A stretch of DNA of 42,893 nt. Origin: a virus (Duplodnaviria; Caudoviricetes). The stretch is taken from positions 1 through 42,893 of the IMG/VR virus record IMGVR_UViG_3300044960_000121, one strand, 5' to 3'. Shown here piece by piece: positions 1 through 23,963 of this stretch (position 1 is its first letter; each line of letters begins with the position of its first letter). Made by a program: the position numbers and the translations under genes. The notes under the pieces were generated by a model. That model searched no databases. It had not been told where the DNA came from and saw nothing but the letters and a program-made list of their open reading frames with translations.

Positions 1-158
1 TGAAAAACTACCAAACACAAACATCTTAAAATGTGTGCCTGTCCCCGCAAAAAATGATAATGGATTTTTTGATTATGATTTTGAAAGTAATACTCTACAA
101 GTTAATTTAAATCAAAATGGAAAATTTAATCTTTTTGATTGTGATTTAATGCTTTTTC
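1..158. repeat. Terminal direct repeat, left copy (circular-contig overlap)
   Basis: 1-158 equals 42736-42893 except C113 vs A42848; an ORF reads through the junction. Confidence 0.95.
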
Positions 159-337
159 GTTTTGCAAATAGATTACATGGTAGAAGCATTGATGGCTCTA
201 GTGTTGCGTTCATCGCTCAAGATACCGTTGGCAAACTAATTTATAATTTTTATAAAATTAGATTTTCATTAACAACGCAAAATCAAAATGCATGGGTAGG
301 CATTGAGATGCATACATATGTGCGGGGCAATGTATGA
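1..337 (+). CDS. 3' part of a 239-aa hypothetical (likely structural) protein starting at 42353 across the junction
   Basis: The frame of ORF 35..337 is continuous with the ORF from ATG 42353 through the terminal repeat. Confidence 0.8.
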   Translation, partial: EKLPNTNILKCVPVPAKNDNGFFDYDFESNTLQVNLNQNGKFNLFDCDLMLFRFANRLHGRSIDGSSVAFIAQDTVGKLIYNFYKIRFSLTTQNQNAWVGIEMHTYVRGNV

Positions 338-813
338 TAGTGATTGTAGCGGCAGGAAAGTCTTTATTATCAAGGCTTATAAGCCTTACAACAAAAAGCG
401 AATACACACACACAATAATACAACTTCCGCCTCCTTATGATATGCTTGTTTTGCATTCAACAATTTTTGGAGTTAGACTAAATTTTTTAAACAAAATAAA
501 AAGAAGATATAAAAAGTACATATCCTTCGAATGCCTTGATAGTCAAGTCAATCAAGCGACTTTATATATTGCTAAAAAATTAGATAATGAAAAATATGAT
601 TATCTGAGCTTGTTTTTAATTTTATTAAATAAAATTTTTAAAACAAAAAAATTAAATGAATATAGAAAAAATAAAAGTTATAATTGTGTTGAAGTGTTTT
701 TAGAGATAATGAAAAATTCAAATATTGAATTTGATTTTGAGATTGATAAAATTGAAACGCCACAAGATATAATTGACGAACTAAGATGTAGCAAGCTTTT
801 TAAGGAGATATAA
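334..813 (+). CDS. Permuted NlpC/P60 papain-like amidase (YiiX/YebB-like)
   Basis: His motif SEYTH near the N-terminus, then KYDY and YNCVE (His before Cys, the permuted order). Confidence 0.65.
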   Translation: MIVIVAAGKSLLSRLISLTTKSEYTHTIIQLPPPYDMLVLHSTIFGVRLNFLNKIKRRYKKYISFECLDSQVNQATLYIAKKLDNEKYDYLSLFLILLNKIFKTKKLNEYRKNKSYNCVEVFLEIMKNSNIEFDFEIDKIETPQDIIDELRCSKLFKEI

Positions 814-1347
814 ATGCCAACAGTCAGACAAGGCGATTTTATTCCATTGAGCTTAAAGCTTTATGATGAGCGTAGCGATAGATACGTGCGTGCATACCTC
901 ACTGATAGCAATGGCAATCCATTGCCACAATCACCTGTCAATCTTACACATGTAGGCTTTGGCTTGTATGAGAATAGAACCATTGCAATGCCTAATGTGG
1001 AGCATGTTACTGCGGTTTATGTTGTTTATTCTGATGCTGGCTATACAATTGAGGATGAAAATTATACTCATGGCGTTGATTTATTCGAACTTCACGTTCC
1101 TGATTTTGTAATTTTGACAAAATTAAATGAAATAAAAAATATATGCGAAAAGCTAGCGGCTCAAACATCAGTGGCTCAAGAGGTTAAAGGCATTGTGCAA
1201 TTAGCCGATGAAATTAGTGCATTATTATCTTCAAATAAAATTGAGGCTAAAGTGTTAGATGAAAAAATTGAGACACAAACAAGCGATAAAAATAATTTAT
1301 CAATAGATTTAAATGATAATAAATTTTTATTAGGAGAAATAAAATGA
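814..1347 (+). CDS. Hypothetical protein, probably virion-associated
   Basis: 177-aa ORF coupled to its neighbours; beta-rich N-terminal half. Confidence 0.5.
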   Translation: MPTVRQGDFIPLSLKLYDERSDRYVRAYLTDSNGNPLPQSPVNLTHVGFGLYENRTIAMPNVEHVTAVYVVYSDAGYTIEDENYTHGVDLFELHVPDFVILTKLNEIKNICEKLAAQTSVAQEVKGIVQLADEISALLSSNKIEAKVLDEKIETQTSDKNNLSIDLNDNKFLLGEIK

Positions 1348-1724
1348 GCATACCTTGCATTACAACAACACAAACTTTAACGATTGTAAGAGGTGAAGAA
1401 AAGGAGTTTTACATTAGATTAAAAACTGAAAGTGATGATTTTTATAATTTGTCAAGCATTGATCCCGCTAGCGGTGATAACATAAGCGTGATTTTTTTGA
1501 AAGCAGATAACACAACGCTGACAAAAGGTTTAATTAATGGCGTTTCGATTGTATCGGCTGAAGGCGGTAAGATAAAAGTGATATTGCAAGAGACAGAAAC
1601 CGCACTTTTAAAGGTAGGGGATTCTCAAGATATCGAGGTAGAAATTTTAGAAAATGGTGGAACATCAAAAAGAATAATACAGATCAAAGGCGTTTTAAAT
1701 GTTGTTAAACGCTTAGGTGAGTAG
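1344..1724 (+). CDS. BppU N-terminal-like structural protein
   Basis: LTIVRGE...YNLS...GKIKVIL.ETET..L...DIEV pattern typical of BppU_N-like domains. Confidence 0.45.
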   Translation: MSIPCITTTQTLTIVRGEEKEFYIRLKTESDDFYNLSSIDPASGDNISVIFLKADNTTLTKGLINGVSIVSAEGGKIKVILQETETALLKVGDSQDIEVEILENGGTSKRIIQIKGVLNVVKRLGE

Positions 1725-1758
1725 TCAAAAAATTAGACACTAGCCTATAAGTCTCTTT

Positions 1759-1824
1759 TAGCAAATTTTATGCCTATCAATTTATGCAAGAATTAAGCCA
1801 TGCATTTATGCAAAAAATAAGCCA
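1759..1824 (-). promoter_or_regulatory. Three tandem sigma54-like -24/-12 boxes
   Basis: Minus strand AGGCATAAAATTTGCT, TGGCTTAATTCTTGCA, TGGCTTATTTTTTGCA; each is GG-N10-GC, spaced 24-25 bp. Confidence 0.55.
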
Positions 1825-1855
1825 AAAAAAGCGGCTAGAACAATGTCCTAGCCGC
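1824..1855 (-). terminator. Rho-independent terminator of the leftward operon
   Basis: Minus strand GCGGCUAGGAC-AUU-GUUCUAGCCGC followed by U7. Confidence 0.85.
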
Positions 1856-1906
1856 CAAAAACAAACAACAGAAAGGAGGGCAGCCTAAAGATAATACTCT
1901 AGGCTA
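1824..1906 (-). ncRNA. Candidate 3'-UTR-derived anti-SD small RNA
   Basis: Hairpin AGCCUAGAG/CUUUAGGCU, then single-stranded CCCUCCUUUCUGUUGUUUGUUUUUG, then the terminator. Confidence 0.4.
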
Positions 1907-1908
1907 TC

Positions 1909-2070
1909 CTAGTGTATAGTGTAGCATACAATTTGATTTTTCTCATTCGTTTTTTGCTCATTTTCATCTAAATCATTGATTTCATTGTTATAATCTATTT
2001 CTAACTCTGTATCATCTAAAAGTATATCATCATCAGAATATTGCATTTTTTGATTGTTGTATACTAACAT
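1909..2070 (-). CDS. Small very acidic protein (53 aa), absent from the ORF track
   Basis: GGAGGT RBS 4 nt before ATG; MLVYNNQKMQYSDDDILLDDTELEIDYNNEINDLDENEQKTNEKNQIVCYTIH. Confidence 0.75.
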   Translation of the reverse strand: MLVYNNQKMQYSDDDILLDDTELEIDYNNEINDLDENEQKTNEKNQIVCYTIH

Positions 2071-2079
2071 CGTAACCTC

Positions 2080-2598
2080 CTAGTTTTCTTTATTTATTTC
2101 TTCAATTACTTCTTTAACAAAATTTTTTAATGATTTTACTGATTTAAAGCAGTATGAGCCAAACAGTACATGTTTGTACTTTAGTTCAGGGCGGACTGCT
2201 ACGTCCGCCGTACAATTAAAGCAATCCTCATAATGCATGTAAGTATATGTATCTACTATAAAATTTTTATCTATCGAAATGTAAGGTTTGCCGCTATCAT
2301 CAAGCAATTGATATTTTTCATCTTTTTTGCTTGTAAGTCGTAAGCCATTGATACGTATATGTTTTTTGTTAAAAAACCAACGCAGCGCTACCTCAAATAC
2401 AGGGGAGTAGAGAACACTAGCGTGTACTGCAGTAGTATCCTGCCATACTGCTGGGGCGTATTTTGGCCTACCCATCACTAGCAAGTGCTGCCAAGTGGGG
2501 TTTACACCTCCTAACCTTCTGTTTTTATTAAGAATTTCAGCTGTTATTTGAAGCTCAAGCTTTTTAATTAATTCTTTGATTTTATTGTTGTTTTTCAT
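2080..2598 (-). CDS. Hypothetical protein, paralog 3 of a tandem family
   Basis: GGAGG RBS; shares WF..K..I.I and YK..LF..F...S.K.L..F..EV motifs with the next two genes. Confidence 0.8.
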   Translation of the reverse strand: MKNNNKIKELIKKLELQITAEILNKNRRLGGVNPTWQHLLVMGRPKYAPAVWQDTTAVHASVLYSPVFEVALRWFFNKKHIRINGLRLTSKKDEKYQLLDDSGKPYISIDKNFIVDTYTYMHYEDCFNCTADVAVRPELKYKHVLFGSYCFKSVKSLKNFVKEVIEEINKEN

Positions 2599-2607
2599 TT
2601 TTGCCTC

Positions 2608-3222
2608 CTAGTAAATCCTGTCAATCACTTCATTAACAAAATTTTCCAAATCTTTCAAGGAGTTAAACCAAAACCTGCTAAATATGCAATATTTATAGGA
2701 TTTTTCTGGGGCTGAAGAGATGCGGGCATTAAAATCTAACCATTTATCGGCTACTTCAGAGGCGTAACTTGTAACTATGTGTTTTTGTTTGATTTCTACG
2801 TGTAAGTCGTCCCCATAAAACCATGTACATGTAGCTTCATCATCATTTAAATCAACGTTTTTTGAGCCTTCTAAATGTACATCATTGATTTCAATAGGTT
2901 TTTTATCACAAAACCATTCTTCTGCAACACGCATAAAGATGTCCTTTCTGGAATTAAAATATGAATAGCTATTAATTTTTAAACTATCAGGTTTAAAATA
3001 TGCACTTTCACAGATCTCAGAATAATATGAGCCGTTTAATGCCTTTTTTGCTTTTTGTTCTAATTCTTTGATTTTATTAATTTCTTCTTTTGTTAAAAAA
3101 TATCCGTACTTGCAATAAGTTACTGAATTGTCTGATGTTTTCATAGTGTTACCTCCTTTATTTGTTAAATTGTTGTTTTTGTTTAACTTTTTGCTTTCGT
3201 TGTTTTTTGTTAATTGTTTCAT
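2608..3222 (-). CDS. Hypothetical protein, paralog 2 (alternative in-frame start 3144)
   Basis: SD before both ATG 3222 (AAAGGAGA) and ATG 3144 (AAAGGAGG); shared family motifs. Confidence 0.8.
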   Translation of the reverse strand: MKQLTKNNESKKLNKNNNLTNKGGNTMKTSDNSVTYCKYGYFLTKEEINKIKELEQKAKKALNGSYYSEICESAYFKPDSLKINSYSYFNSRKDIFMRVAEEWFCDKKPIEINDVHLEGSKNVDLNDDEATCTWFYGDDLHVEIKQKHIVTSYASEVADKWLDFNARISSAPEKSYKYCIFSRFWFNSLKDLENFVNEVIDRIY

Positions 3223-3272
3223 GGTTTTATCTCCTTTCTTTTGTTAAGTTAATGTTTGTATTTGACTTTTTG

Positions 3273-3998
3273 TTACGCTGCTTTATTCATGTTGTTTTTG
3301 TCTTTTTGTTCTTCTTCGTCATCCTTAAAAAATTCAAGTTCTTTTTTAACTTCTTCTTCAAGTTTTTTTAGGTCTGATTTTTTTGTAAGATAAAATTTGC
3401 CAAAAAGGCAATATTTGTATGTTGCTTTTTTGTTGTTTGTTATATCCACCAGTCCATATATTTTTTCGGCTGGCAAATCCAAGGGTTCAAATGTGCGTAT
3501 TTCTGGCTCTTTTTCAGTTAGCATTTGTTCTTTTTGTATACTAACATAAAAATCTTTTTCAAAAGGCTCAAACGTAAATGGAATGTGCAAGCCTTTTTCT
3601 TCGTCCTCTTTTATGTATACATTTTTAATTTTTATATTGGTTTCATTGTTTGAAAACCAACGAAAAAGCACCTCCGCTATTGGGTCGTATGTTTTCATGT
3701 ACTTCCACTCGCCATTAACATATTGGTGATGAGGCTCATAGCCTATAGTCCTACCGTATCCGATGATGTAACCTTGTTTTAGTCTTTTCATCAATCGAAA
3801 AGAGCCTCGTATCCCTTCGTTGTACTCTGCAATCATTTTTCTTATTCTTTCGATTGTCTCTTGTACTACTTCGGCGGCTGACTTTTTACTGATTTTTTTG
3901 TTTGTTTTGTTTTGTTTCATTGTTTTTTTCCTCCTTTCTTTGTTTGTTGTTGTTTTGTTGTTTACTTTTTTTGTTTCGTTTGTTTTTGTTGTTTTCAT
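3273..3998 (-). CDS. Hypothetical protein, paralog 1 (start 3998 or 3920, not 4070)
   Basis: SD before ATG 3998 (AAAGGGGA) and 3920 (AAAGGAGG); ATG 4070 overlaps the promoter -10. Confidence 0.75.
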   Translation of the reverse strand: MKTTKTNETKKVNNKTTTNKERRKKTMKQNKTNKKISKKSAAEVVQETIERIRKMIAEYNEGIRGSFRLMKRLKQGYIIGYGRTIGYEPHHQYVNGEWKYMKTYDPIAEVLFRWFSNNETNIKIKNVYIKEDEEKGLHIPFTFEPFEKDFYVSIQKEQMLTEKEPEIRTFEPLDLPAEKIYGLVDITNNKKATYKYCLFGKFYLTKKSDLKKLEEEVKKELEFFKDDEEEQKDKNNMNKAA

Positions 3999-4068
3999 TT
4001 TTTGTCCCCTTTCTGTTTGTTTTTGTTTGGGGGATTTTTCTCTTTTCCCCTTAGTTAATCTATAATAC

Positions 4069-4095
4069 ATATCGGCATTATTTTAAAAAACTTTA
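4069..4095 (-). promoter_or_regulatory. Sigma28 (FliA/SigD) promoter
   Basis: Minus strand TAAAGTTT...GCCGATAT with exact TAAA-N15-GCCGATAT spacing. Confidence 0.8.
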
Positions 4096-8199: not shown

Positions 8200-9174
8200 A
8201 TGAAAAGAAAAACAAAAAAAGAAAAGCAAGAATTGCATTACAAAGTTTTAGAGATTTTAGATAATCATGAATTAGATGAAAAGTTTATAACATATAGATC
8301 TCCAGGTGGGGTTTTTTTGGCAAAGCTACATGACAACGGAGTTATAACTGATGTTAGCATTAATGAACTTAAAAAATTTTTATATAAATTCTTAAAAACA
8401 CATTACCGTGAATTTTCATTAACACACAAAGATTGTGATGAGATTGCGGAGTGGTATGTGGATTTATATGATACGTTTGAAGAACCATTGGTTTTTAAAT
8501 TTAAAGGTAATGCTGCATATGCAAGGCACATCATACCTTTTGAGCTTAACATGTCTAGCATATCAGATGAAGAATTGAAAAATAAAGCTCCGCATTGGAA
8601 TATGATTTTAAATGCGTGTTCGAGGGTAGAAAATTATACTTATTTTAAAGGATGTAAAGAAGATTTTTGTTATTTTTTGGCTACGCTTTTTGATTTAAAT
8701 GCAAAAAGAGACAAGTATCTATGGCTATGTGGAGACAACAAAATCACTAATGCTATACTTAACGCATTGGAATGGGCTTTTGGCAGTACTTTTTTTAATT
8801 CTTATCCGCCAAAACACTATGGAATATTTTGGAGGAATGAACTAATTGGCAAGCGTGTTGTAGTGTTTAAAGATTGTGATGATTATCAACAAGAAGACTA
8901 TCAAGGCACAATGATAGCATCACACAATAATGTTATAACAATATTCCAAAGGCGTAAGCCGCAATTTCAATCACGCATGCATTGCAAATTTATTTTTACA
9001 TCAAAAGAAATGCCAAAAGATTTAATAAAAAAAGAAGAGAGATTTATACCTTGCAGAATTTTAAAATTTAAAATTGATAATAATTTTGGAAATCATTTAA
9101 TTGATGAAGCGCCTATATTTTTTAACTATTGTTATAATTTTTATCAAAGTATAATCAATAATAGTAATGCCTAA
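8200..9174 (+). CDS. Degenerate paralog of the SF3 helicase, P-loop lost
   Basis: Aligns by eye to 9861..11378 (APHW, FC.FL..LFD, YLW..G, WAFG.T, KR.V.F.DC, CK.IF.S) but has GDNKITN in place of GAGQNSKS. Confidence 0.75.
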   Translation: MKRKTKKEKQELHYKVLEILDNHELDEKFITYRSPGGVFLAKLHDNGVITDVSINELKKFLYKFLKTHYREFSLTHKDCDEIAEWYVDLYDTFEEPLVFKFKGNAAYARHIIPFELNMSSISDEELKNKAPHWNMILNACSRVENYTYFKGCKEDFCYFLATLFDLNAKRDKYLWLCGDNKITNAILNALEWAFGSTFFNSYPPKHYGIFWRNELIGKRVVVFKDCDDYQQEDYQGTMIASHNNVITIFQRRKPQFQSRMHCKFIFTSKEMPKDLIKKEERFIPCRILKFKIDNNFGNHLIDEAPIFFNYCYNFYQSIINNSNA

Positions 9175-9216
9175 AAGGTTTGTTAGTCAAGGCTTTTAGG
9201 CTATATAAGGATAGAT

Positions 9217-9864
9217 ATGGATATCATTGAGCTAATTAAAAAGAAGTATGATTGTGATAGTGATGTGCTAGCTCATTATGCAATTGCAAAACATGAGCTA
9301 GTACAACAATCAAAATATTTTAAACGAAAAAAATTAGATACTTTAAAAATTGATTATAGCAACATTAAAGCAATTAAAAAACCTTATGATGTTATAAGCC
9401 TTGTTGTGCCTTTGTTTGACATATCAACATCTGAGATAAAAAATATTCAATACATTGATGATGACGGCACAAAGATGTTTTTAGCAGGCAAGACTACTAA
9501 TGGGCTTGCATACGTTTTTAATGGAGATGAGAGTGAGGTTTTTATATGCGAAGGTTTTGCTACTGCGGCGACTATACATGCGGCAACAGGCAAAACAACA
9601 TATGCCGCAATGAGTTGTATTAATTTGATTGATGTTTATAAAATTCTTAAATTTAAGTATAAAGCTAATCAGATAGTTTTTGCACTAGATTATGATTTAA
9701 TGTTTTCTAATTCAATGGAAATAAAAAAGTTGTTTTGTCAAAAGTATAATATCGCAATTGCAATATGTGATGATGAAGAAGATACAACAACAAAGGATTT
9801 TAATGATATTTTAATCAAATACGATTTAGAAACTGTTAAAAGGATGATAGAAGAAAGACTATGA
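9217..9864 (+). CDS. Toprim-domain primase
   Basis: QYID.DG.K.FL.G, ICEGFATA, ALDYD, KDFND. Confidence 0.8.
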   Translation: MDIIELIKKKYDCDSDVLAHYAIAKHELVQQSKYFKRKKLDTLKIDYSNIKAIKKPYDVISLVVPLFDISTSEIKNIQYIDDDGTKMFLAGKTTNGLAYVFNGDESEVFICEGFATAATIHAATGKTTYAAMSCINLIDVYKILKFKYKANQIVFALDYDLMFSNSMEIKKLFCQKYNIAIAICDDEEDTTTKDFNDILIKYDLETVKRMIEERL

Positions 9865-11378
9865 GCAATTTAAAAGACAAAAAATTTAAAACACAAAATT
9901 ACACTTATAACGAAAATGAAGAAAATTGGGTTTATTTTTGTACTTACGATCATAGCACTATATTCATGTTTGAGAAAAACAAAAAAACACTAACAAAAAA
10001 ATATATTAAAGCAAAGCTCAAGGAGTATAGGCATATCACATGCAAGGACTCGCCTTTTTCCTATGTTCCGCCGCAAGTTTTTCAAAAAAAAACAAAAGTG
10101 GACAAATGCTATATTGTTGCTGATTTAATTGAGAATGGATATTTGGACAAGGAATTTGTGCTTTACACAACGCAAGGCAGTTCAATGATGTTAGCAGAGT
10201 TAGGAGATTACAATGTTATAAAAAATGTATATTTAGAAGATTTAAAAAAGAGTTTAACTAAATTTTGTGTTCACTACAAACAGTACTTAAATTTTTCGCC
10301 TGAAGATATTAGAAAAACTATGACTTTGTTTTTAGATAAAACTGACGTTATAAGAAACCCTTTGCTTTTTAGATTCAGATATGAAATTGCTCATGCCTTG
10401 CATGTTATTCCTTTTGATGTTGATTTATCAGGGGCTACAACGTTTGATACTGAAAAATACGCTCCGCATTGGCATGATATTTTGATGAGATGCTCAAACC
10501 CTGAAATGTTTTGTGCGTTTTTAGGCTCATTGTTTGATAGAGATAGCGATTTACAGCATTATCTATGGATGTATGGGGCAGGGCAAAATTCAAAAAGCAC
10601 AATCTTAAATGTTTTACATTGGGCGTTTGGACCTACTTATTGCTCATCAATGGTTTTAAACGATGATAAATTTTGGACCTACGATATACTGAATAAACGT
10701 ATAGTTGCATTTGCAGATTGTAAAGAAGGATTTATAGAATCTCATACATTTAAATCATTGACAGGGGGAGATTTAATTAGAATTGAGCCGAAAGGCAAAC
10801 AAGCCTATAACATTAAGCCTACATGCAAATTAATTTTTGCATCAAATGCAAGACCTGAAATTTCTAACACAATAGCCGATAAAAGAAGAATAATAATGTG
10901 TTCTTTTGAGCCTATTAAAGGTGAGCCAATGCAACATTATCCTGACCTTTTAAAAAATGAAGCATTTTATTTTTTCAATTATTGTTTTCACATTTACAAA
11001 AAAAATAGCATTAATGGAAAACTCATATATAACTATAATGAAAGCATTGATATTCAAGGGCTTGTTGAGGAATCTAATGCGGAATATGAAAGAGTTTTTA
11101 AAAATTCATTTGTGTTAGATGAAAGACAAGTTAGTGAAAACGAAAAATATAGGTTTTCTGCAACAGAATTGGATAAAGTTGTAAACTACCATTGCAACGA
11201 CAAAAATAAAAAACAATGGAAGAAAAAATTTTTAGATTACATTATGAGCACGTATAAGATTGTCTACAAGCCAATCAAAGTGAAAGGCAAGGTTGTGTGG
11301 ACGTATGTAGGGGCATATGTTAACATTGGATTTAGAGATTTAGACAGTGAGCAAAGCGGCAAGTCTCATAGGCCATGA
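9861..11378 (+). CDS. D5/P4-type superfamily 3 helicase
   Basis: GAGQNSKST Walker A, FK.LTGGD.I..E.KG, KLIFASN..P, RRII. Confidence 0.85.
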   Translation: MSNLKDKKFKTQNYTYNENEENWVYFCTYDHSTIFMFEKNKKTLTKKYIKAKLKEYRHITCKDSPFSYVPPQVFQKKTKVDKCYIVADLIENGYLDKEFVLYTTQGSSMMLAELGDYNVIKNVYLEDLKKSLTKFCVHYKQYLNFSPEDIRKTMTLFLDKTDVIRNPLLFRFRYEIAHALHVIPFDVDLSGATTFDTEKYAPHWHDILMRCSNPEMFCAFLGSLFDRDSDLQHYLWMYGAGQNSKSTILNVLHWAFGPTYCSSMVLNDDKFWTYDILNKRIVAFADCKEGFIESHTFKSLTGGDLIRIEPKGKQAYNIKPTCKLIFASNARPEISNTIADKRRIIMCSFEPIKGEPMQHYPDLLKNEAFYFFNYCFHIYKKNSINGKLIYNYNESIDIQGLVEESNAEYERVFKNSFVLDERQVSENEKYRFSATELDKVVNYHCNDKNKKQWKKKFLDYIMSTYKIVYKPIKVKGKVVWTYVGAYVNIGFRDLDSEQSGKSHRP

Positions 11379-11381
11379 GCA

Positions 11382-12425
11382 TCAAGGCTTTTGCGGGTTT
11401 TTGTGTTTTATAAAAATTCTTTTATATAATTCTTTTCCATTTATGAAAACAGGCTTGCCATACATTACTCCGTTGTAATATTCTTTAAATGTACTTGTAC
11501 CTAGTATCTCAAATTGATAACTATTATATTTATCTAAAAAAGAAACAGGTAACCCCATTATTCCATCATAATCATTAGGTATTGCATCAGTATAAGGCAC
11601 TTCAATAGCATCATAGTTATCATATTTTTTATATGAATTATTGTTGTTTTGGATTTTTTTGTTATGTTTTAAATTTTCATTCATTGATTTTAGTTTTAGA
11701 GGTTTTGGTTGTTTTCCATGTTGCAAATTTGTAAACCATCGTATTCGGCTTACTCTTATATACTTTTTACCGCTCTTATCTACTCTATACACCGCCGCAT
11801 TGAGCGGGTACTCACTAGGCACTAAAAACTCCCTATCGCCGCTCCTTATGCTATGTCCTAACCATACAATATTATTTTTTATTAAATAAAAAACATCTTT
11901 GTAAGTGATTGCATTCATATTACCAAGTACTAAAAACTTTTTATTATGCTCAATCAATAATTTAAAAAAATATCTAAACAGTGAATAAGGCGGATTGGTT
12001 ACTATAATATCTGATTGTTTTAATATTTCAATGCATTCAGGACTACGAAAATCGCCATTGCCGTTTAGTGTTGTTAATTCGTTTTTTTTGTTTTTCAAAA
12101 TTTGATTAATAACGTCAATTAGGCTTGTATCAAGGCTTTCAGGCACTTCATTGACTTCATTTATTATTAGTTTTTTACCATTTCCGTTTTTGCTATAACA
12201 AGTGGCTATGAGAGTTTTTAATTTAAATTTATTAAAATTAAAAATAAAATATTTTATAAAATTGCTTTTTGTAGGCTCATCACAATTGCAATATATGGTT
12301 TTGTTTCTGAATACATTGATATCATGTTCATAATAAACATTAACTTCTTTTTCTATATCTTCGTACAAAGTATAGAACTCATCACATTTCGCTTTTCTTG
12401 CATTGTTTAGATTTTTGTTTTTCAT
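11382..12425 (-). CDS. EcoRI-family adenine DNA methyltransferase, copy 2
   Basis: DEFYT, IYCNCD, GDFRS.EC, IVTNPPYS, YDNYDAIEV, FLDKY. Confidence 0.88.
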   Translation of the reverse strand: MKNKNLNNARKAKCDEFYTLYEDIEKEVNVYYEHDINVFRNKTIYCNCDEPTKSNFIKYFIFNFNKFKLKTLIATCYSKNGNGKKLIINEVNEVPESLDTSLIDVINQILKNKKNELTTLNGNGDFRSPECIEILKQSDIIVTNPPYSLFRYFFKLLIEHNKKFLVLGNMNAITYKDVFYLIKNNIVWLGHSIRSGDREFLVPSEYPLNAAVYRVDKSGKKYIRVSRIRWFTNLQHGKQPKPLKLKSMNENLKHNKKIQNNNNSYKKYDNYDAIEVPYTDAIPNDYDGIMGLPVSFLDKYNSYQFEILGTSTFKEYYNGVMYGKPVFINGKELYKRIFIKHKNPQKP

Positions 12426-13462
12426 TTTTGTTTATTTTTGTGTTTTATAAAAATTCTGTTGAAAACCTCTTTTCCATTTATATAAGGTGATCTTCCATAA
12501 ATTTTATTTGGATCTTGGTAAATGCCACGGGTTGAGCCTAAAATCTCAAACTGATCAGGATTATATTTATCTAAAAAACTAATCGGGACACCCATTACTC
12601 CCTCATAATCGCTAGGTATTGCATCGGTATAAGGCACTTCAATAGCATCGTAATTATCGTATTTTTTGTAGGCATTAGGGTTTTTTTGGATTTTTTTATT
12701 GTGTTTTAGATTATACTGCATTGTTTTTAATCTTAATGGCTTGGGTTGTTTTCCGTGTTCTAAATTTGTAAACCATCTGATTGCGTCTATTTTTATGTAC
12801 TTGTTGCCATTATCATCTACAAAATAATTTTTTGAATATAGATTATATTCATCAGAAACTAAAAAAATCATATTGCCGCCTCTAGTGCTATGACCTAGCC
12901 ACATTTTATTTTGTTTTATCTGCGAAAAAACACCCGTATACGTTACTGCGTTTAGGTTTCCTACTATCAAAAATTTTTTTTCATATAGAAAAAGTAACTT
13001 AAAAAATTCATGCAATAAAGAGAAAGGCGGATTAGTTATTATAATGTCGGATTGTTTTAACAGCTCAACACATTCATCACTTCGAAAATCTCCGTTGCCG
13101 TTTAATGTTGTTAGCTCATTGTTTTTGTTTCTTACTAATCTATTAACAATACCAACAAGGCTTGCATCAAGGCTTTCAAAGATATCGTTAGTTTCATTGA
13201 CTACTAGTTTTAACCCTTTGCTATCTTTTTTGTAACAAGTTGCAATCAATCTTTTTAATCCAAATTTTTTGAAGTTTAAAACAAAGTACTTTGCAAAGTT
13301 GCTTTTGTATGGATTATCGCAATTGCAATATATTACTTTGTCTCTGAATACATCTTTATCATACTCATAATATATGTTTATCTCTTTTTCGATATAATGG
13401 TATAAAGTATAAAACTCTACGTTTTTCTCTTTTTGTTGCCTGTTTAGCCTTTGACCCCTCAT
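12422..13462 (-). CDS. EcoRI-family adenine DNA methyltransferase, copy 1
   Basis: EFYT, IYCNCDNP, GDFRS.EC, ITNPPFS, MGVPISFLDKYNPDQFEILG. Confidence 0.88.
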   Translation of the reverse strand: MRGQRLNRQQKEKNVEFYTLYHYIEKEINIYYEYDKDVFRDKVIYCNCDNPYKSNFAKYFVLNFKKFGLKRLIATCYKKDSKGLKLVVNETNDIFESLDASLVGIVNRLVRNKNNELTTLNGNGDFRSDECVELLKQSDIIITNPPFSLLHEFFKLLFLYEKKFLIVGNLNAVTYTGVFSQIKQNKMWLGHSTRGGNMIFLVSDEYNLYSKNYFVDDNGNKYIKIDAIRWFTNLEHGKQPKPLRLKTMQYNLKHNKKIQKNPNAYKKYDNYDAIEVPYTDAIPSDYEGVMGVPISFLDKYNPDQFEILGSTRGIYQDPNKIYGRSPYINGKEVFNRIFIKHKNKQK

Positions 13463-17704: not shown

Positions 17705-18625
17705 ATGTTTGTGTTTATAAAAAAAGCAAAAAAAAACACAAAAAATATTTTTACAAGAGCACAGCTAAACGCAATAAAAAAAATCTACAATAAACACTTT
17801 AAACTCTTTTCTACATCATTAAAAGATACATTTAAAAATTTTTCAAATGAAATATCTAAAAAGAAATTCATTGAAACCCTTGCAGCTCAAGGCACAGAGG
17901 CAGGCATATCAGAATTAACACAAAAAAAATTAATTGAAAAACTAAATGAAGTGTCTGATAGTGCTTTTACTGCAGCAATGACTGACACAATTAACAAAAT
18001 GGGAGTTATCCATACAATCAAAAAACCTACTATTAATTTTAATTCTTCAAACTCTAGAGTTGTGCAATACATTAAAAACTCAGTGGGCAATTTAATCCAA
18101 AATATTAGCACGCAAACACTAACACAAGTACGCAATCTTTTTATCGATAGCATGCGAATAGCAAAACCTGTAGATGAGCTTGCAATGGATTTAAAAAACA
18201 TTGTTGGCTTATTGCCAGAGCAGCAACAAAAATATTTTGAACTAAAAGAAACAAGCCTTAAAAAGCTTGAGGCTCAAGGCGTTTCAAGGAATGAAGCATT
18301 AAAACAAGTTGAAACAAAATTAGAAAGTTTCTATAATCGTCAATTAGATATAAGGGCGAAACGCATCGCACGCACCGAAACGTCCCGCATTGTTAATGAG
18401 GGGCAAATGGAGATTTACAGGCAGATGAGTGAGGCGGGTATCATTGATATTAGAGAGGCAAAAAAGCAATGGGTTATTTTTGAAGACACTGCTTGCTCAA
18501 TTTGTGAGCCGTTAGATGGCACAATTGTAGGCTTTAATGATTTTTTTGAAACGCAAAATGGGGCAGTGTCTACACCACCATTACATCCTAATTGCAATTG
18601 TACAGTGATTTTATTATATGAGTAG
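17705..18625 (+). CDS. MuF-type minor head protein
   Basis: RA.RIARTE, K.W, C..C..LDG, PP.HPNC.C. Confidence 0.88.
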   Translation: MFVFIKKAKKNTKNIFTRAQLNAIKKIYNKHFKLFSTSLKDTFKNFSNEISKKKFIETLAAQGTEAGISELTQKKLIEKLNEVSDSAFTAAMTDTINKMGVIHTIKKPTINFNSSNSRVVQYIKNSVGNLIQNISTQTLTQVRNLFIDSMRIAKPVDELAMDLKNIVGLLPEQQQKYFELKETSLKKLEAQGVSRNEALKQVETKLESFYNRQLDIRAKRIARTETSRIVNEGQMEIYRQMSEAGIIDIREAKKQWVIFEDTACSICEPLDGTIVGFNDFFETQNGAVSTPPLHPNCNCTVILLYE

Positions 18626-18634
18626 GAGGCAAAA

Positions 18635-21600
18635 ATGAAGTTAGAAGAGATCAATCCGCAATCTTTGAAAAGCGTTGATAATGAAGAGTTAGCACAAGTG
18701 TGGCATCGCCTAAATCAATGGTATGCAAACGCAATCAACGAACATAAACCTACAGAGGATATAATCAATGCCGCAATGTGGGCATTGGACGAAATGCAAG
18801 CAAGAGGTTTTGATTACGATGAAAACAGTGAGCTAGTTCATGCAATTCAATCTTTTAAAAAGTCTGAAATCGTTGATTATCAAGCGTTGCCTGATGAGGT
18901 TGTGGTTGTTTATGATTTTGTTTCTGTGGTTGGCTCAAGCGTTAAAAGTGAAGATTATAATGATGTTGATATCCTTGTGCGTGCTAATCTCAGCGGTGGC
19001 TCATATTTGGTTGATTACCCAAATGTATTTTTGCCAATCAGAAACGCAATTGCAAAAGACAAACAGCAAAAACTGCATTTAATCAGTAACCCGCAAGGGG
19101 CACATTCTGATTACATGCCGCTATATGATTTAATATTAAGAAAGAAAAAACAGCCGCAAATTAAAGTTTTAAAATCTGATTATGTGATGATTGATTTAGG
19201 TTGCGGCAATAACAAGCCTAACGGTTATATCGGCATTGACAAGGATAGCAATAGCAATGCCGATATAATTCACAACATTGAGCTAGGTTTACCTTTTGCT
19301 AATAATAGCGTTGACAAGGTTAGAGCTTATCATCTTTTAGAACACTTGCCTGACAAGGATTTTATAATGCGTGAGATTTATAGGGTTTTAAAAAATGGCG
19401 GAACTTTTGAATTTGAAATACCTAGTGCGGACTCTGATGGGGCAGTAGCTCATCCTGAACATAAGACACTTTGGAATGTCTCAAGTTTTGCATTCTACAC
19501 TAATCCGCAATTGATTGAAGACAGGCCTATGTTTGAAGTGATTGAATTAGCGGAATGTGAAAGAAACGGACACAAGTACGTTAAAGGCATTCTTCGAAAA
19601 CCTTTGAACAAAGCCGATTTTAAGCCATTCATTCCATTTACTCCTCCAAAACCTGCAATGGCGTGGTATACTGAGCTATCGCCGCAAGATAAAGACAAAT
19701 TGTTAGAATGGGCAGATAGTCAATCTTTTGCAATTGAGCCGAAATATAATGGCTTTCGAGCGATAATTGAAAAGCAAGGCATAAGAATTCGCATGTGGTT
19801 TGAGGGCTCTCAACACATTGATAGGTTTAAAAGCCTTATCTATCAAGGCATAAAGAATGCGTTGCTTTCAATCCCTGAAGATTTTATTTTAGATTGTGAT
19901 GTTGGGATAACAAAAAATGGCGAAAGATTGCCACGGATTGAATTAATGAAACTCAATTCAGACAATCCACAATTAGAAGAAAATGAGAAAATCGAAATAA
20001 CATTATTTGATATTCCTTATTTTGTTGAGCCGTTGATAGACAAGCCTTTTGAGGATAGAAGAAAAATTTTAGAAGAGTTTTATAAAAAATACAAAAACAA
20101 AATTAAAGAATGGATAAAAATATCCGATATCAAATATATCAAACAGCCAAAACAATTAAATGACAACGCAATTAAATGGGCTTTTGACTTTTCGATGTCT
20201 GAGGGTTTAGTTGCCAAAAAACTAAACTCAACATACTCAATTAATGGCTCAACGAATGATTGGGCAAAAATGAAAAAAGTTGCAGAATTAAAAGTTATTG
20301 TGCTTGATAAGGCAAGCACAAAAACAGAAGGCACTTATAACTACACTGTTGGATTAATTGATACGCTTAGCTTTTCAAATACAATAGAATTTGAAGGCAA
20401 AAAATATGTGAATTTAGGCAACACATTTAACACTGATTTAGATGTTTCTGTTGGCTCAATTCTTACAATTGAATTAATTGAGCTCATAATGGATGAAACA
20501 AAAAACACACTTGTACTATTAGGCGGCAGAGTTGTAGATGTTGATACAACAAGGCATGAGCCATATACTGATGAACAAGCTATAGATATAGCACGCCGTT
20601 ATCAAGTTCTTCAAATTAAAAAATCAATTTTTAAAATGATTTTGCTATATAACAAGCTCAAAAAGCTTGATATTCAAGGCGAAGAGGACACAGAGACAAG
20701 AGGAGAGATAGCTCAAAGAGAATGGGAAAAAAATTGGATTACATATTTGCCTAAAAATGGAAAAGGCAAATTCGTATATCAACATCATTGGAGAGGTTTA
20801 AATGAGGAAGAGATAAAATTAAGCGATGATGAGCTAATGAATTCTAGCCATTCTGTACATGGGGATCTGCGCTTTGAGTCCGATAATTTTTTATTTGGCT
20901 TTTCTGTTTTTTTGGGCACAACAAAAGATAATAAAAAAGTAGGCGGCGATAGATTAGTTGCATTAGACAAAACAAAAGATAATCTTCAAGGCACATTCAA
21001 ATTAAAACAGCCGATTGAGTGGCTACATGTGGGAGAGGGCTCAGGACAAGCCTTTGCGCCTATGATGCCTGGCTCAACATCAAAAACATACTCAAAATTT
21101 TTTGTTATAGATAACGGTGAGTATGAACTAGGCGTTGTAAAACAACATTTTGTTGAGATATTTTTTAATGGCAAAAAATTAAAAGGTAGGTATACTATTC
21201 AATCAGTTCCAAAAGAGAATGAAGAACGTTATTGGATTATTAATAAACCTGATGAGCAAACACCATACGCTCAAAGCTATGAGCTTCAAGCGGTTGCAGA
21301 AGAAGAAAAAGCAAAAGGCTATGAGTGGCTATATTGGAGATCACCGATGAGCAAAAAAACTAAAATTATTGATTTAAAAAAATTAAAAACAGTTAACGTT
21401 AAAAAAATTGATAATGAAAAACATCTAGTTTATGGTGTTGTGCTTGAGCCTTCAATTGATGAGTTCGGCAAACTCATTGCTGAGCCTGATACACAAGGCG
21501 ATGTTATTACAGCTGAGGAAATCGAAAAAGCGGCACATGAATACATAATTAACTCCCGCATTGTTGGCGAAAATCATAGCGGCAAATTCAATGCGCAAGT

Positions 21601-21772
21601 GGTTGAGAGTTATATCGCTCCTGTTGATTTTTATATTAATAAAGAGAAGATAAGAAAAGGCTCATGGGTTTTGGTTGTTCATGTGCCTGATGATGCTGAT
21701 TGGGCAAGAATTAAAAACGGTGAGTTTAACGCTTTTTCGATTGGTGGCATTGGCGAGCGAAAAAAATTGTAA
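18635..21772 (+). CDS. Multidomain protein: NTase-like + SAM methyltransferase + ATP-dependent DNA ligase + LigD-like phosphoesterase + XkdF-type prohead protease
   Basis: VVGS...DVDILV; IDLGCG...HLLEHL; EPKYNGFR, EGLVAK, WAKMK; FVYQHH, HGDLRFE, D.GEYE, LKGRY; VYGVVLEP, DTQGD, IEKAAH, FSIGG. Confidence 0.85.
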   Translation: MKLEEINPQSLKSVDNEELAQVWHRLNQWYANAINEHKPTEDIINAAMWALDEMQARGFDYDENSELVHAIQSFKKSEIVDYQALPDEVVVVYDFVSVVGSSVKSEDYNDVDILVRANLSGGSYLVDYPNVFLPIRNAIAKDKQQKLHLISNPQGAHSDYMPLYDLILRKKKQPQIKVLKSDYVMIDLGCGNNKPNGYIGIDKDSNSNADIIHNIELGLPFANNSVDKVRAYHLLEHLPDKDFIMREIYRVLKNGGTFEFEIPSADSDGAVAHPEHKTLWNVSSFAFYTNPQLIEDRPMFEVIELAECERNGHKYVKGILRKPLNKADFKPFIPFTPPKPAMAWYTELSPQDKDKLLEWADSQSFAIEPKYNGFRAIIEKQGIRIRMWFEGSQHIDRFKSLIYQGIKNALLSIPEDFILDCDVGITKNGERLPRIELMKLNSDNPQLEENEKIEITLFDIPYFVEPLIDKPFEDRRKILEEFYKKYKNKIKEWIKISDIKYIKQPKQLNDNAIKWAFDFSMSEGLVAKKLNSTYSINGSTNDWAKMKKVAELKVIVLDKASTKTEGTYNYTVGLIDTLSFSNTIEFEGKKYVNLGNTFNTDLDVSVGSILTIELIELIMDETKNTLVLLGGRVVDVDTTRHEPYTDEQAIDIARRYQVLQIKKSIFKMILLYNKLKKLDIQGEEDTETRGEIAQREWEKNWITYLPKNGKGKFVYQHHWRGLNEEEIKLSDDELMNSSHSVHGDLRFESDNFLFGFSVFLGTTKDNKKVGGDRLVALDKTKDNLQGTFKLKQPIEWLHVGEGSGQAFAPMMPGSTSKTYSKFFVIDNGEYELGVVKQHFVEIFFNGKKLKGRYTIQSVPKENEERYWIINKPDEQTPYAQSYELQAVAEEEKAKGYEWLYWRSPMSKKTKIIDLKKLKTVNVKKIDNEKHLVYGVVLEPSIDEFGKLIAEPDTQGDVITAEEIEKAAHEYIINSRIVGENHSGKFNAQVVESYIAPVDFYINKEKIRKGSWVLVVHVPDDADWARIKNGEFNAFSIGGIGERKKL

Positions 21773-21780
21773 TTAAATTA

Positions 21781-21808
21781 TTGCAATTGAATTAAAAAAT
21801 GTTAAAAT
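21781..21808 (+). promoter_or_regulatory. Possible internal promoter for scaffold/capsid genes
   Basis: TTGCAA-N16-TAAAAT with extended TG. Confidence 0.4.
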
Positions 21809-21816
21809 AATTTATT

Positions 21817-22638
21817 ATGAGTCAAGTAAATGAATTAAAAAATTTAAATATTTTTGAAGTTAGTGTTGTCCCTAAAGGGGCAAACAGAAAAAAATTTTTT
21901 TTGTTAAAAGGAGATTATCAAATGGATGAGCTTTTAAAAAAAATTGACGAAATAAAGTTAAATGAAAATTTTAAAAACGTTTTTGAAAAAATGCAATTAA
22001 CAGAAGAAGAAAAAAACGCACTAGAAAGTGCGTTAAAACTTTTGCAAGCCTTGAAAGACAAGCTTCCCGAAGACCTGTTAAAACAATTGTATGAACTGTT
22101 AGGGTATCCAGCTCCATACTGCGCCGCTCCTGAATATTACGCCGCTCCAACAAAAAAAGAAGAAGAACAAAAAAACGAAATTGAAAAAATGGATGAAAGC
22201 ATAAAACAAAAATTTGAAACCATATTAAAAGAAAAAGAAGAAATCGCAAAAAAAGCTAAAGAATTAGAAGAAGAATTGCAAAAACAAAAAATTGAAAAAG
22301 AAAAAATTGAATTTGTTGCAAAGATTGATAGCGAATATAAAAATATAGCAGGAGACAAAAAAGAATTAGCTAACGCTCTCTTTGAAATCCGCAATACTCA
22401 AGCCTTTTCAGTGATTGATAGAATTTTAAAATCCGCCGATGTTGCATTATCTAATTCAGTATTAACTCAAGAATTAGGCACATCAGTAGAGGGCTCAGGT
22501 TCGGCTTGGGAATTAATTGAAAAAGCTGCAAGCGAACTTGTAAAACAAGATAAAAACTTAACAATGCAAAAAGCAATTTATCAAGTTATAAAATCAAATC
22601 CTAAACTTTATCAAAACTATCTAAATGAAAGGAGTTAA
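21817..22638 (+). CDS. Capsid scaffolding protein with an N-terminal protease-like strand (internal start 21922)
   Basis: N-terminal EVSVVPKGAN; E/K-rich coiled coil; AAAGGAG before ATG 21922. Confidence 0.75.
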   Translation: MSQVNELKNLNIFEVSVVPKGANRKKFFLLKGDYQMDELLKKIDEIKLNENFKNVFEKMQLTEEEKNALESALKLLQALKDKLPEDLLKQLYELLGYPAPYCAAPEYYAAPTKKEEEQKNEIEKMDESIKQKFETILKEKEEIAKKAKELEEELQKQKIEKEKIEFVAKIDSEYKNIAGDKKELANALFEIRNTQAFSVIDRILKSADVALSNSVLTQELGTSVEGSGSAWELIEKAASELVKQDKNLTMQKAIYQVIKSNPKLYQNYLNERS

Positions 22639-23015: not shown

Positions 23016-23963
23016 ATGGCTAACCCAACAAAAAACGAAGTTCATGTTAATAAACCATTAACCAACATATCAGTAGCATACATGCAAGATTTAAACGCTT
23101 TTGTTGCCGATCAAGTTTTTCCAAAAGTGGCGGTAGCAAAGCAATCCGATAGATATATCGTTTACGATAAGGCAGATTTTTATAGGGATGAGATGAAACT
23201 GAGAGCTCCCGCCTCTGAGAGCGCAGGGGCAGGTTTTCGAATTGATAACACGCCTACATACTATTGTGCAGTCTACGCATTGCACAAAGATATTGACGAT
23301 CAGTTGAGGGCAAACGTTGATGAGCCTATCAATCTAGATGAAGACACAACAAAATTTTTAACTCAAAAAATGATGTTAAAAAAAGATAAAATCTTTGTTG
23401 AAAACTATTTTAAAACAGGCGTATGGGGCACTGACTACACCCCCTCAACATTGTGGAGTGCGGCAAACTCAACACCTGTAAAAGATATAGACGCACAAAA
23501 AGATAGCGTTTATAAAAAAACGGGCTACATGCCTAACGTTTTAGTTGTAACCTCTGACGTTCATACTGTACTTAAAAATCATCCCGATGTATTAGACAGG
23601 GTTAAGTACACACAACAGGCAACAATATCAGAACAGTTATTAGCATCTTTATTTGGCGTTCAAAAATATTTAGTTTTAAGAACCATTGAAAACAAAGCCG
23701 CAGAAGGGGCTAGTGCAGACTTTGATTTTCTAGCTAGCAAAAAAGCTTTATTAGTTTATGCCGCAAGTGCTCCGTCTCTTATGACTCCATCGGCGGGCTA
23801 TTCATTTGTTTGGCAAGGACTTACTGGCTCAATTGACGGCGTAAGAGTTAAAAATTTCCGATTAGAACATTTAGCCGCTGATAGAATTGAGATTGAAGCC
23901 GCTTTTGATTTAAAAGTTGTTGCGGCTGACTTAGGCGTTTTCTTTAACGGAGTGATTGCCTAA
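23016..23963 (+). CDS. Major capsid protein
   Basis: LTNISVAY.Q..FVAD.VFP.V N-terminus, G..PN.LV, G..F ending; strong RBS; position. Confidence 0.85.
   Translation: MANPTKNEVHVNKPLTNISVAYMQDLNAFVADQVFPKVAVAKQSDRYIVYDKADFYRDEMKLRAPASESAGAGFRIDNTPTYYCAVYALHKDIDDQLRANVDEPINLDEDTTKFLTQKMMLKKDKIFVENYFKTGVWGTDYTPSTLWSAANSTPVKDIDAQKDSVYKKTGYMPNVLVVTSDVHTVLKNHPDVLDRVKYTQQATISEQLLASLFGVQKYLVLRTIENKAAEGASADFDFLASKKALLVYAASAPSLMTPSAGYSFVWQGLTGSIDGVRVKNFRLEHLAADRIEIEAAFDLKVVAADLGVFFNGVIA

Follow-up and report, generated by a model that had tools for sequence, protein, structure and literature searches.

We analysed a 42,893-nucleotide (42.9-kb) record of an uncultured tailed phage (IMGVR_UViG_3300044960_000121, 86% complete; this whole stretch of DNA is called the window), which carries at positions 18635-21772 of the plus strand a single open reading frame (ORF) of 1045 amino acids (aa) that joins repair-type enzymes to a prohead protease. 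The ORF has no internal stop and is flanked by a MuF gene (17705-18625) and a scaffold-like gene (21817-22638), the slot for a maturation protease in which an earlier note on this DNA had placed it. The gene order runs terminase, portal, MuF, fusion ORF, scaffold, decoration and capsid, then sheath and baseplate, as in a contractile-tail virus. The features at the locus are as follows.

17705-18625, plus strand: MuF head morphogenesis gene, the upstream neighbour (Pfam Phage_Mu_F, E 5.8e-12; PHROGs).
18635-21772, plus strand: fusion ORF, 1045 aa.
18635-18865, plus strand: helical N-domain, aa 1-77, resembling T4 endonuclease V (Pyr_excise) by sequence.
18884-19174, plus strand: minimal Pol-beta-type nucleotidyltransferase (NTase)-like domain (G100-S101, D110-x-D112).
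19175-19612, plus strand: class I S-adenosylmethionine (SAM) methyltransferase (DLGCG), optional in the family.
19613-20278, plus strand: adenylation domain of an ATP-dependent DNA ligase (K370 codon at 19742).
20279-20623, plus strand: likely ligase OB domain.
20690-21370, plus strand: LigD-type phosphoesterase (PE) fold (H718, H742, D744 and R746 kept; K789 invariant).
21386-21769, plus strand: XkdF (S78-like) prohead protease without its last strand (D952, H981, S1035).
21817-22638, plus strand: scaffold-like gene with many hydrophobic-x-Lys signals.
21817-21921, plus strand: missing last strand of the protease, within the N-terminal 35 aa of the scaffold gene (LxxLxxxEVSxV motif).
21907-21924, plus strand: nested ribosome-binding site and ATG (21922), which would yield a short scaffold without the strand.
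23016-23963, plus strand: major capsid protein.

The fusion of repair-type enzymes to the head protease is genuine. Scanning viral contigs yielded 72 loci, from 80 of 128 confirmed stretches, and 53 of these 72 related loci hold ligase, PE and XkdF in one ORF. The intact frame and the recurrence of the architecture confirm the fusion that the earlier note had proposed, and this conservation rules out an assembly artefact as its origin. Four DNA sequencing runs labelled hot springs or microbial mat metagenome were flagged as possible sources of the window, with no RNA run listed; reads from three runs covered almost none of it. Probing with the window's own proteins only, we found the fusion flanked by a head gene, on one side or both, in 50 of the 72 loci and on both sides in 27. 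DNA ligases are infrequent in double-stranded DNA viruses and occur mostly in large genomes (PMC4889955; statements credited to papers, here and below, draw on parts of those papers), which makes a ligase in a record of ~43 kb unusual.

Relatives were drawn from several searches. A full-length search returned 71 among 8000 scored candidates, a PE-profile search 146 (120 listed) and an N-domain profile 574 representatives at 50% clustering, while 6 of 25 candidate stretches on genome contigs were relatives. By title, the metagenome-assembled records that hold relatives belong to Dehalococcoides, Chloroflexota, Dehalococcoidales, Leptospira, Thermogutta and Proteobacteria. The stored set of 153 proteins, 149 of them with PE, is skewed by the choice of queries and contains fragments; among the 149, ligase was present in 127, NTase in 125, XkdF in 115, N-domain in 113, methyltransferase in 60, a uracil-DNA glycosylase (UDG) fold in 57, a metallo-β-lactamase fold in 15, Dam in 11 and 2H in 4. 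Further passengers in chosen relatives were Acb1, GNAT, Tad3, C5 methylase, DHH, AAA and inteins. A PE tree was made for 99 proteins that combine the N-domain, PE and XkdF; with non-detection scored as absence, it shows 24 state changes for the methyltransferase, 11 for UDG and 9 for the ligase. These changes imply that cargo is swapped and that the ligase is dispensable. Cargo swapping, counter-defence domains included, is thereby confirmed in relatives, where Acb1/2H, Tad3 and Dam were seen. PE is also joined to other protease types, by eye in P0067 and P0058 and with a Mu-like protease in P0278.

Several single relatives merit separate mention. A metallo-β-lactamase fold, PE and a different, canonical-looking prohead protease occur together in P0067, P0068, P0117 and L072 (3525-5969); P0067 has two PE matches, and the ligase part of this architecture lies in an upstream gene. 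In L008 the chain is divided between two distant genes (152-3175 and 9911-12178), with N-domain, NTase and methyltransferase upstream and ligase, PE and XkdF in the head slot. P0235 carries a Tad3-like and P0011 an Acb1 domain, both on family chains, and P0197 combines an N-domain with zeta-toxin and RelA-like domains. Many inserted segments in relatives are Pfam-negative and are candidate new anti-defence domains.

At the C terminus, Pfam Peptidase_S78_2/XkdF matches aa 921-1042 (E 4.8e-28), and the Asp/His/Ser set shared with XkdF (PF14550) and HK97-type S78 (PF04586) proteases is conserved as D952 (116/116), H981 (115/116) and S1035 (116/116), in agreement with the XkdF-type protease first read there. 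The fusion chain stops 10 residues beyond S1035, and the protease fold is incomplete in one chain. The next gene opens with the motif LxxLxxxEVSxV..AN. Across 48 aligned loci, this strand was found in the next gene in 39 and fused in 3; the six missed by the pattern proved by eye to be two fused, two split, one cut by the contig end and one with the scaffold gene farther downstream. In relatives with the strand fused, the sequence across the junction fits the C-terminal portion of the HK97-type S78 profile, which marks the strand as the final element of the protease itself. As in assemblin-fold proteases, this strand is predicted to carry active-site residues. In L019 (1936-6615), five unrelated-looking genes separate the protease fusion from the strand-bearing scaffold gene.

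Directly behind the strand, a ribosome-binding site with ATG occurs in 29 of 41 loci, whereas seven control windows farther downstream had one in 0-3 of 41. Long (with strand) and short (without strand) scaffold forms would set the dose of protease, and hence of cargo, in each head. A sigma-70-like site 5' of the scaffold gene (21781-21808, 9/12) was rejected, being at chance level (43 found, 41 expected).

Of 283 phage records matched by XkdF, four cultured phages were examined for the same split. In RHph_TM16 and RcDurkin the next gene opens with a weak match to the strand profile, in PaP1 the strand is seen there by eye only, and in B83 it sits at the N terminus of the protease itself, as a permuted single chain. 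The last strand is thus detached in all four as it is at the fusion locus, and the split appears to be a wider XkdF trait that extends to cultured phages. In contrast to the fusion, the XkdF proteases of these four phages are free of enzyme cargo. Although annotated "DNA methyltransferase", the PaP1 and TM16 genes were rejected as evidence of fusion, their products being 156-210 aa long with no methyltransferase profile match; both genes resemble plain short proteases (the four phage loci, L083-L086, are RHph_TM16, PaP1, B83 and RcDurkin). XkdF is mentioned once as a head peptidase in PMC7824862. A split XkdF protease is described nowhere in the searched literature, which covers few subscription papers, and the split may be new.

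A short hydrophobic-x-Lys signal marks most of the boundaries between enzymes. Under the wider of two patterns, it was found at 35/53 N-domain ends, 36/43 NTase ends, 30/43 methyltransferase ends, 42/61 OB ends, 37/63 PE starts and 33/54 XkdF starts, or 59-84% at most inter-enzyme seams against 341/2817 (12%) in interior windows, with all counts coming from related, non-independent sequences and from a motif class widened after inspection. The narrower pattern lowered the rates and kept the ranking. At the ligase/OB seam the signal occurred in 2/64. By protein, observed over expected was 3.5 in scaffolds, 1.5 in MuF and ~1 in terminase, portal, capsid and sheath, the capsid value being 1.7 under the wider pattern. 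In relatives extended at the N terminus, the signal ends exactly one residue before the start of the unextended members in 105 of 135 (background 6%), such that a cut at that signal would recreate the N terminus borne by the 72 unextended members, though some starts may be mis-called. Candidate cut sites in the fusion protein are K76, K180, K326, K663 and the lysines just before the protease. The HK97 protease cleaves after lysine, its capsid precursor being cut at K103/S104 (PMC10275583). By eye, most scaffolds also have the signal 5' of a conserved C-terminal helix pair (~22530-22638 in the window; L002-L059), a candidate site for release from the capsid-binding end.

The ligase looks intact by its motifs. 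Pfam DNA_ligase_A_M matches aa 355-547 (E 3.7e-21), the closest solved sequence matches are archaeal DNA ligases, and the motif I lysine and motifs III-V are present. The key residues are kept throughout the family (K370 128/130, D459 128/130, G524 130/130, K545 127/130; E523 is also conserved), and sealing activity is predicted. The reading of an ATP-dependent ligase with motif I Lys370 encoded at 19742 is therefore correct to the codon. For the OB-like region placed after it, the named Atlas clusters that scored highest carry ligase OB families (0.92-0.93), a lead only, and there was no sequence match in Pfam or the PDB.

Sequence and modelling together identify the next domain as PE. Pfam LigD_N reached only E 0.051 on the fusion protein, and five LigD PE sequences were the sole matches of the PE family profile to solved structures. 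The predicted model (pLDDT 96) aligned with 3p4h over 117 residues (Z 13.1, root-mean-square deviation 1.9) and with 3n9b at Z 11.2, the next-best row scoring 3.2, which confirmed the PE β-barrel fold at the level of the model. Six residues are essential in PaePE: His42, His48, Asp50, Arg52, His84 and Tyr88 (PMC3300020, PMC8656161). The equivalents of the metal ligands His42/His48/Asp50 and of Arg52 are H718 (146/149) and H742, D744 and R746 (147/149 each). By strand and helix register, rather than superposition, the positions of His84 and Tyr88 are taken by Q792 (Q in 115/149, variable) and W796 (148/149), near the invariant K789. Fold and metal site are thus intact and the phosphate-binding side appears altered, with two of six essential LigD residues replaced. 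The 3'-phosphoesterase of the earlier note accordingly stands in fold and metal ligands and fails at the His84/Tyr88 positions, and its span of ~20750-21250 is corrected to ~20690-21370. Because the metal ligands are invariant and the phosphate side is changed, this variant is a candidate for new end-healing chemistry.

The fusion should not be classed as a LigD, and it carries a variant PE. With LigD and the stand-alone PE of bacteria and archaea (3p4h, 3n9b), it shares an ATP-dependent ligase, the PE fold and the His/His/Asp and Arg set. Unlike LigD, the chain has no archaeo-eukaryotic primase (AEP)-type polymerase domain among its Pfam matches, and the 86%-complete record has no Ku, the host genome lying outside that search. 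The fusion PE further differs by insertions, additional terminal elements and the changed His84/Tyr88 positions, and it is joined to a head protease.

The N-terminal domains are less firmly assigned. Pyr_excise matched the N-domain of 14 of 48 relatives, and the Pfam cut-off was passed by 3 of 6 chosen relatives and by P0139; the window's own copy gave no Pyr_excise match when searched alone. Aligned with T4 endonuclease V (DenV, PF03013) in hhalign, the N-domain profile was in register but weak (E 0.015, probability 3%). DenV lyase chemistry runs through the N-terminal amine (PMC3285167), and the position of the predicted free N terminus is conserved in the relatives. In contrast to the 138 aa of DenV, the N-domain has ~77 aa, Arg at the position of the catalytic Glu and no significant fold match. 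We treat the likeness to T4 endonuclease V as a lead. In the adjoining minimal domain (~95 aa), the hG[GS]-x-DxD motif is nearly invariant (G100, D110 and D112 each 127/128), and relatives gave weak Pfam matches to DUF6932 (16/48), NTP_transf_2 (6/48) and the Pol-beta palm (3). Its fold found no match in searches that barely probed it, the C-terminal half of the model being of low confidence, and we call it a putative nucleotidyltransferase from its motifs only. The earlier Pol-beta assignment keeps its near-invariant GS and DxD, and the start moves from ~18863 to ~18884. The class I SAM methyltransferase read next to it was upheld by Pfam Methyltransf_11 on aa 215-258 (E 4.7e-9) and by the DxGxG motif I in its DLGCG form; among solved structures, its nearest relatives are enzymes other than DNA methylases. 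When the alignments of N-domain, NTase, OB and XkdF were run as profiles against solved structures, nothing significant emerged.

Taken together, these findings lead us to favor, at a probability of roughly 0.5, a head cargo that is recruited by the scaffold, cuts itself and repairs nicks and abasic sites in phage DNA. The protease would bind the scaffold strand, which would complete and recruit it and build the chain into the prohead; it would then cut after lysines at the domain seams and free the separate enzymes. Ligase, PE and partners would stay in the particle, leave with the DNA and mend it at or just after ejection. An endonuclease V-like domain, with the UDG fold of relatives, might find and open the lesion, PE might clean the 3' end, the nucleotidyltransferase may add a nucleotide and the ligase would seal. 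The methyltransferase and the relatives' Dam, Acb1/2H, Tad3 and metallo-β-lactamase fold would ride along by this loading route as passengers. We consider it very likely that the chain is built into the prohead and likely that it is cut at the seams. Retention and ejection of the fragments are somewhat less secure but still favored, and DNA repair as their main job is only slightly favored. The constant partners (N-domain, NTase and, in about half, the UDG fold) point to repair of single-strand lesions. Loading of cargo into the head by the protease, as proposed in the earlier note, is supported indirectly by the conserved head position, the scaffold-borne strand and the cut-like seam signals. 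Head-packaged proteins that are injected and protect the genome are known in T4 and P1: IPI* of T4 is processed, packaged in the head and injected (PMC3012670), and DarB of P1 is head-packaged and injected (PMC5512222). The proposed cargo would resemble T4 IPI*/Alt and P1 DarB, which are protease-processed or head-structural; unlike these products of separate genes with their own targeting, the fusion would have the protease itself as carrier.

Several observations weigh against this reading. Active sites are altered in the PE, endonuclease V-like and UDG-fold domains. Glu has a catalytic role in T4 endonuclease V (PMC3285167), and in the weak alignment it falls on the invariant R25 of the N-domain. 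Fold searches with the N-terminal model gave generic helical matches only (best Z 7.3), and Foldseek ranked T4 endonuclease V 24th (E 2.9). Of the UDG folds in relatives, 53/60 retain the HP motif, while the motif-A Glu and the cysteines, judged by what we take to be the canonical UDG family-4 motif, are mostly missing. No third catalytic acid was identified in the NTase, for which H148, D159 and D165 are candidates. Of 99 near-complete relatives, 9 on scattered branches lack the ligase, the PE C-terminal seam has the signal in only 12/59, and in L060-L062, L070 and L071 the cargo is a separate gene unfused to XkdF. By tblastn, neither the PE domain nor one N-domain found a match among 50,697 phage records, and no cultured phage in that set carries the PE cargo.

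The same loading and cutting might serve enzymes that act only within the prohead, during or after packaging, to seal nicks. All loading evidence fits this equally, and the ligase with its OB domain would be a product of ~337 aa, far above the 76 residues of IPI*. The Acb1/2H, Tad3, Dam and metallo-β-lactamase fold of relatives make sense only in a newly infected cell, however, and we consider confinement to the prohead unlikely. Another possibility is that the cargo works mainly in counter-defence and not in repair. DNA ends would then be bound or shielded, or nucleotide signals or RNA targeted, by the changed PE, UDG-fold and endonuclease V-like domains, and a host protein would be the substrate of the minimal NTase. 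Active sites are changed in four domains, PE is kept in forms without ligase, and the minimal Pol-beta NTases of polyvalent proteins have been proposed to nucleotidylate proteins (PMC5512222). Against this stand the intact-looking DNA ligase in 127 of 149 PE proteins, whose closest solved relatives are DNA ligases, and the invariant PE metal ligands, and we give counter-defence as the main role a small chance.

Quite improbable, in our view, is the proposal of the earlier note that a LigD-like kit, once ejected, closes the genome into a circle or rejoins double-strand cuts made by restriction or CRISPR. Ligase and PE do form the LigD heal-and-seal pair, and the anti-defence passengers of relatives suit such a role, but Ku and the LigD polymerase domain are missing from the searches described above, two PE residues are replaced, the ligase is dispensable in some relatives, and the phage record itself encodes RecE-like, Sak4-like and resolvase genes. 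The lack of Ku and of a polymerase domain and the presence of these recombination genes lead us to rank repair of nicks and abasic sites above double-strand end joining. Least probable is that the fusion borrows late expression only, the chain being cut, or working uncut, in the cytoplasm of the cell that makes the phage, with no cargo kept in particles: scaffold and protease fragments commonly exit the head, and some loci have a stand-alone cargo gene within the head module, but the protease appears to need the scaffold strand, which ties cutting to assembly, and PE partners with more than one type of protease.

The class to which the fusion belongs is already published. Polyvalent proteins with an assemblin-like peptidase, which is always C-terminal, were described by Iyer et al. 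2017 (PMC5512222), and the fusion resembles them as a chain of disparate enzyme domains, variable in relatives, that lies among virion genes and ends in a peptidase; NTase and methylase are shared, as are GNAT and 2H in relatives. Processing and delivery with the DNA were predicted for polyvalent proteins and are likewise proposed here. A term search of the main text of PMC5512222 returned no LigD, glycosylase or DNA-ligase cargo, and, unlike the fusion, the proteins in the part of that paper covered are not described with a split protease or a lysine seam code. A Nudix domain fused to a capsid-processing peptidase is known (PMC9503650), and no paper on a protease-ligase-PE fusion was found in the searched literature. 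The cargo, the split protease, the seam signal and the endonuclease V-like N-domain appear to be new.

If the favored repair reading is true, phages deliver DNA repair inside the particle and not only anti-restriction proteins, and a protease completed by a scaffold strand, together with a short lysine cut code, is a general loading route that might explain the timing of XkdF proteases. The swappable slots would be a hunting ground for new anti-defence domains, Acb1- and Tad3-like ones being there already. In its furthest form, which we regard as speculative and rather unlikely, a whole excision-repair line, comprising a lyase or lesion finder, a cleaner of 3' ends whose active site is new, a nucleotide adder and a ligase, would be packed as one self-cut polyprotein in widespread uncultured phages, the two-part protease serving as address label and assembly-triggered switch, and particles would mend DNA damage taken outside the cell before phage gene expression.

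Elsewhere in the window, two tandem EcoRI-type adenine methyltransferase genes (11382-13462, minus strand; Pfam E ~1e-109 each) lie on the strand opposite the primase genes. The primase-helicase region (8200-11378, plus strand) comprises three ORFs, namely, a degenerate-looking DUF5906 gene, a Toprim gene and a fuller primase/helicase gene, of which the first and third resemble diverged duplicates. Three neighbouring Pfam-negative ORFs at 2080-4070 on the minus strand have C-terminal motifs that look alike by eye and are possibly a small early-gene paralog family.

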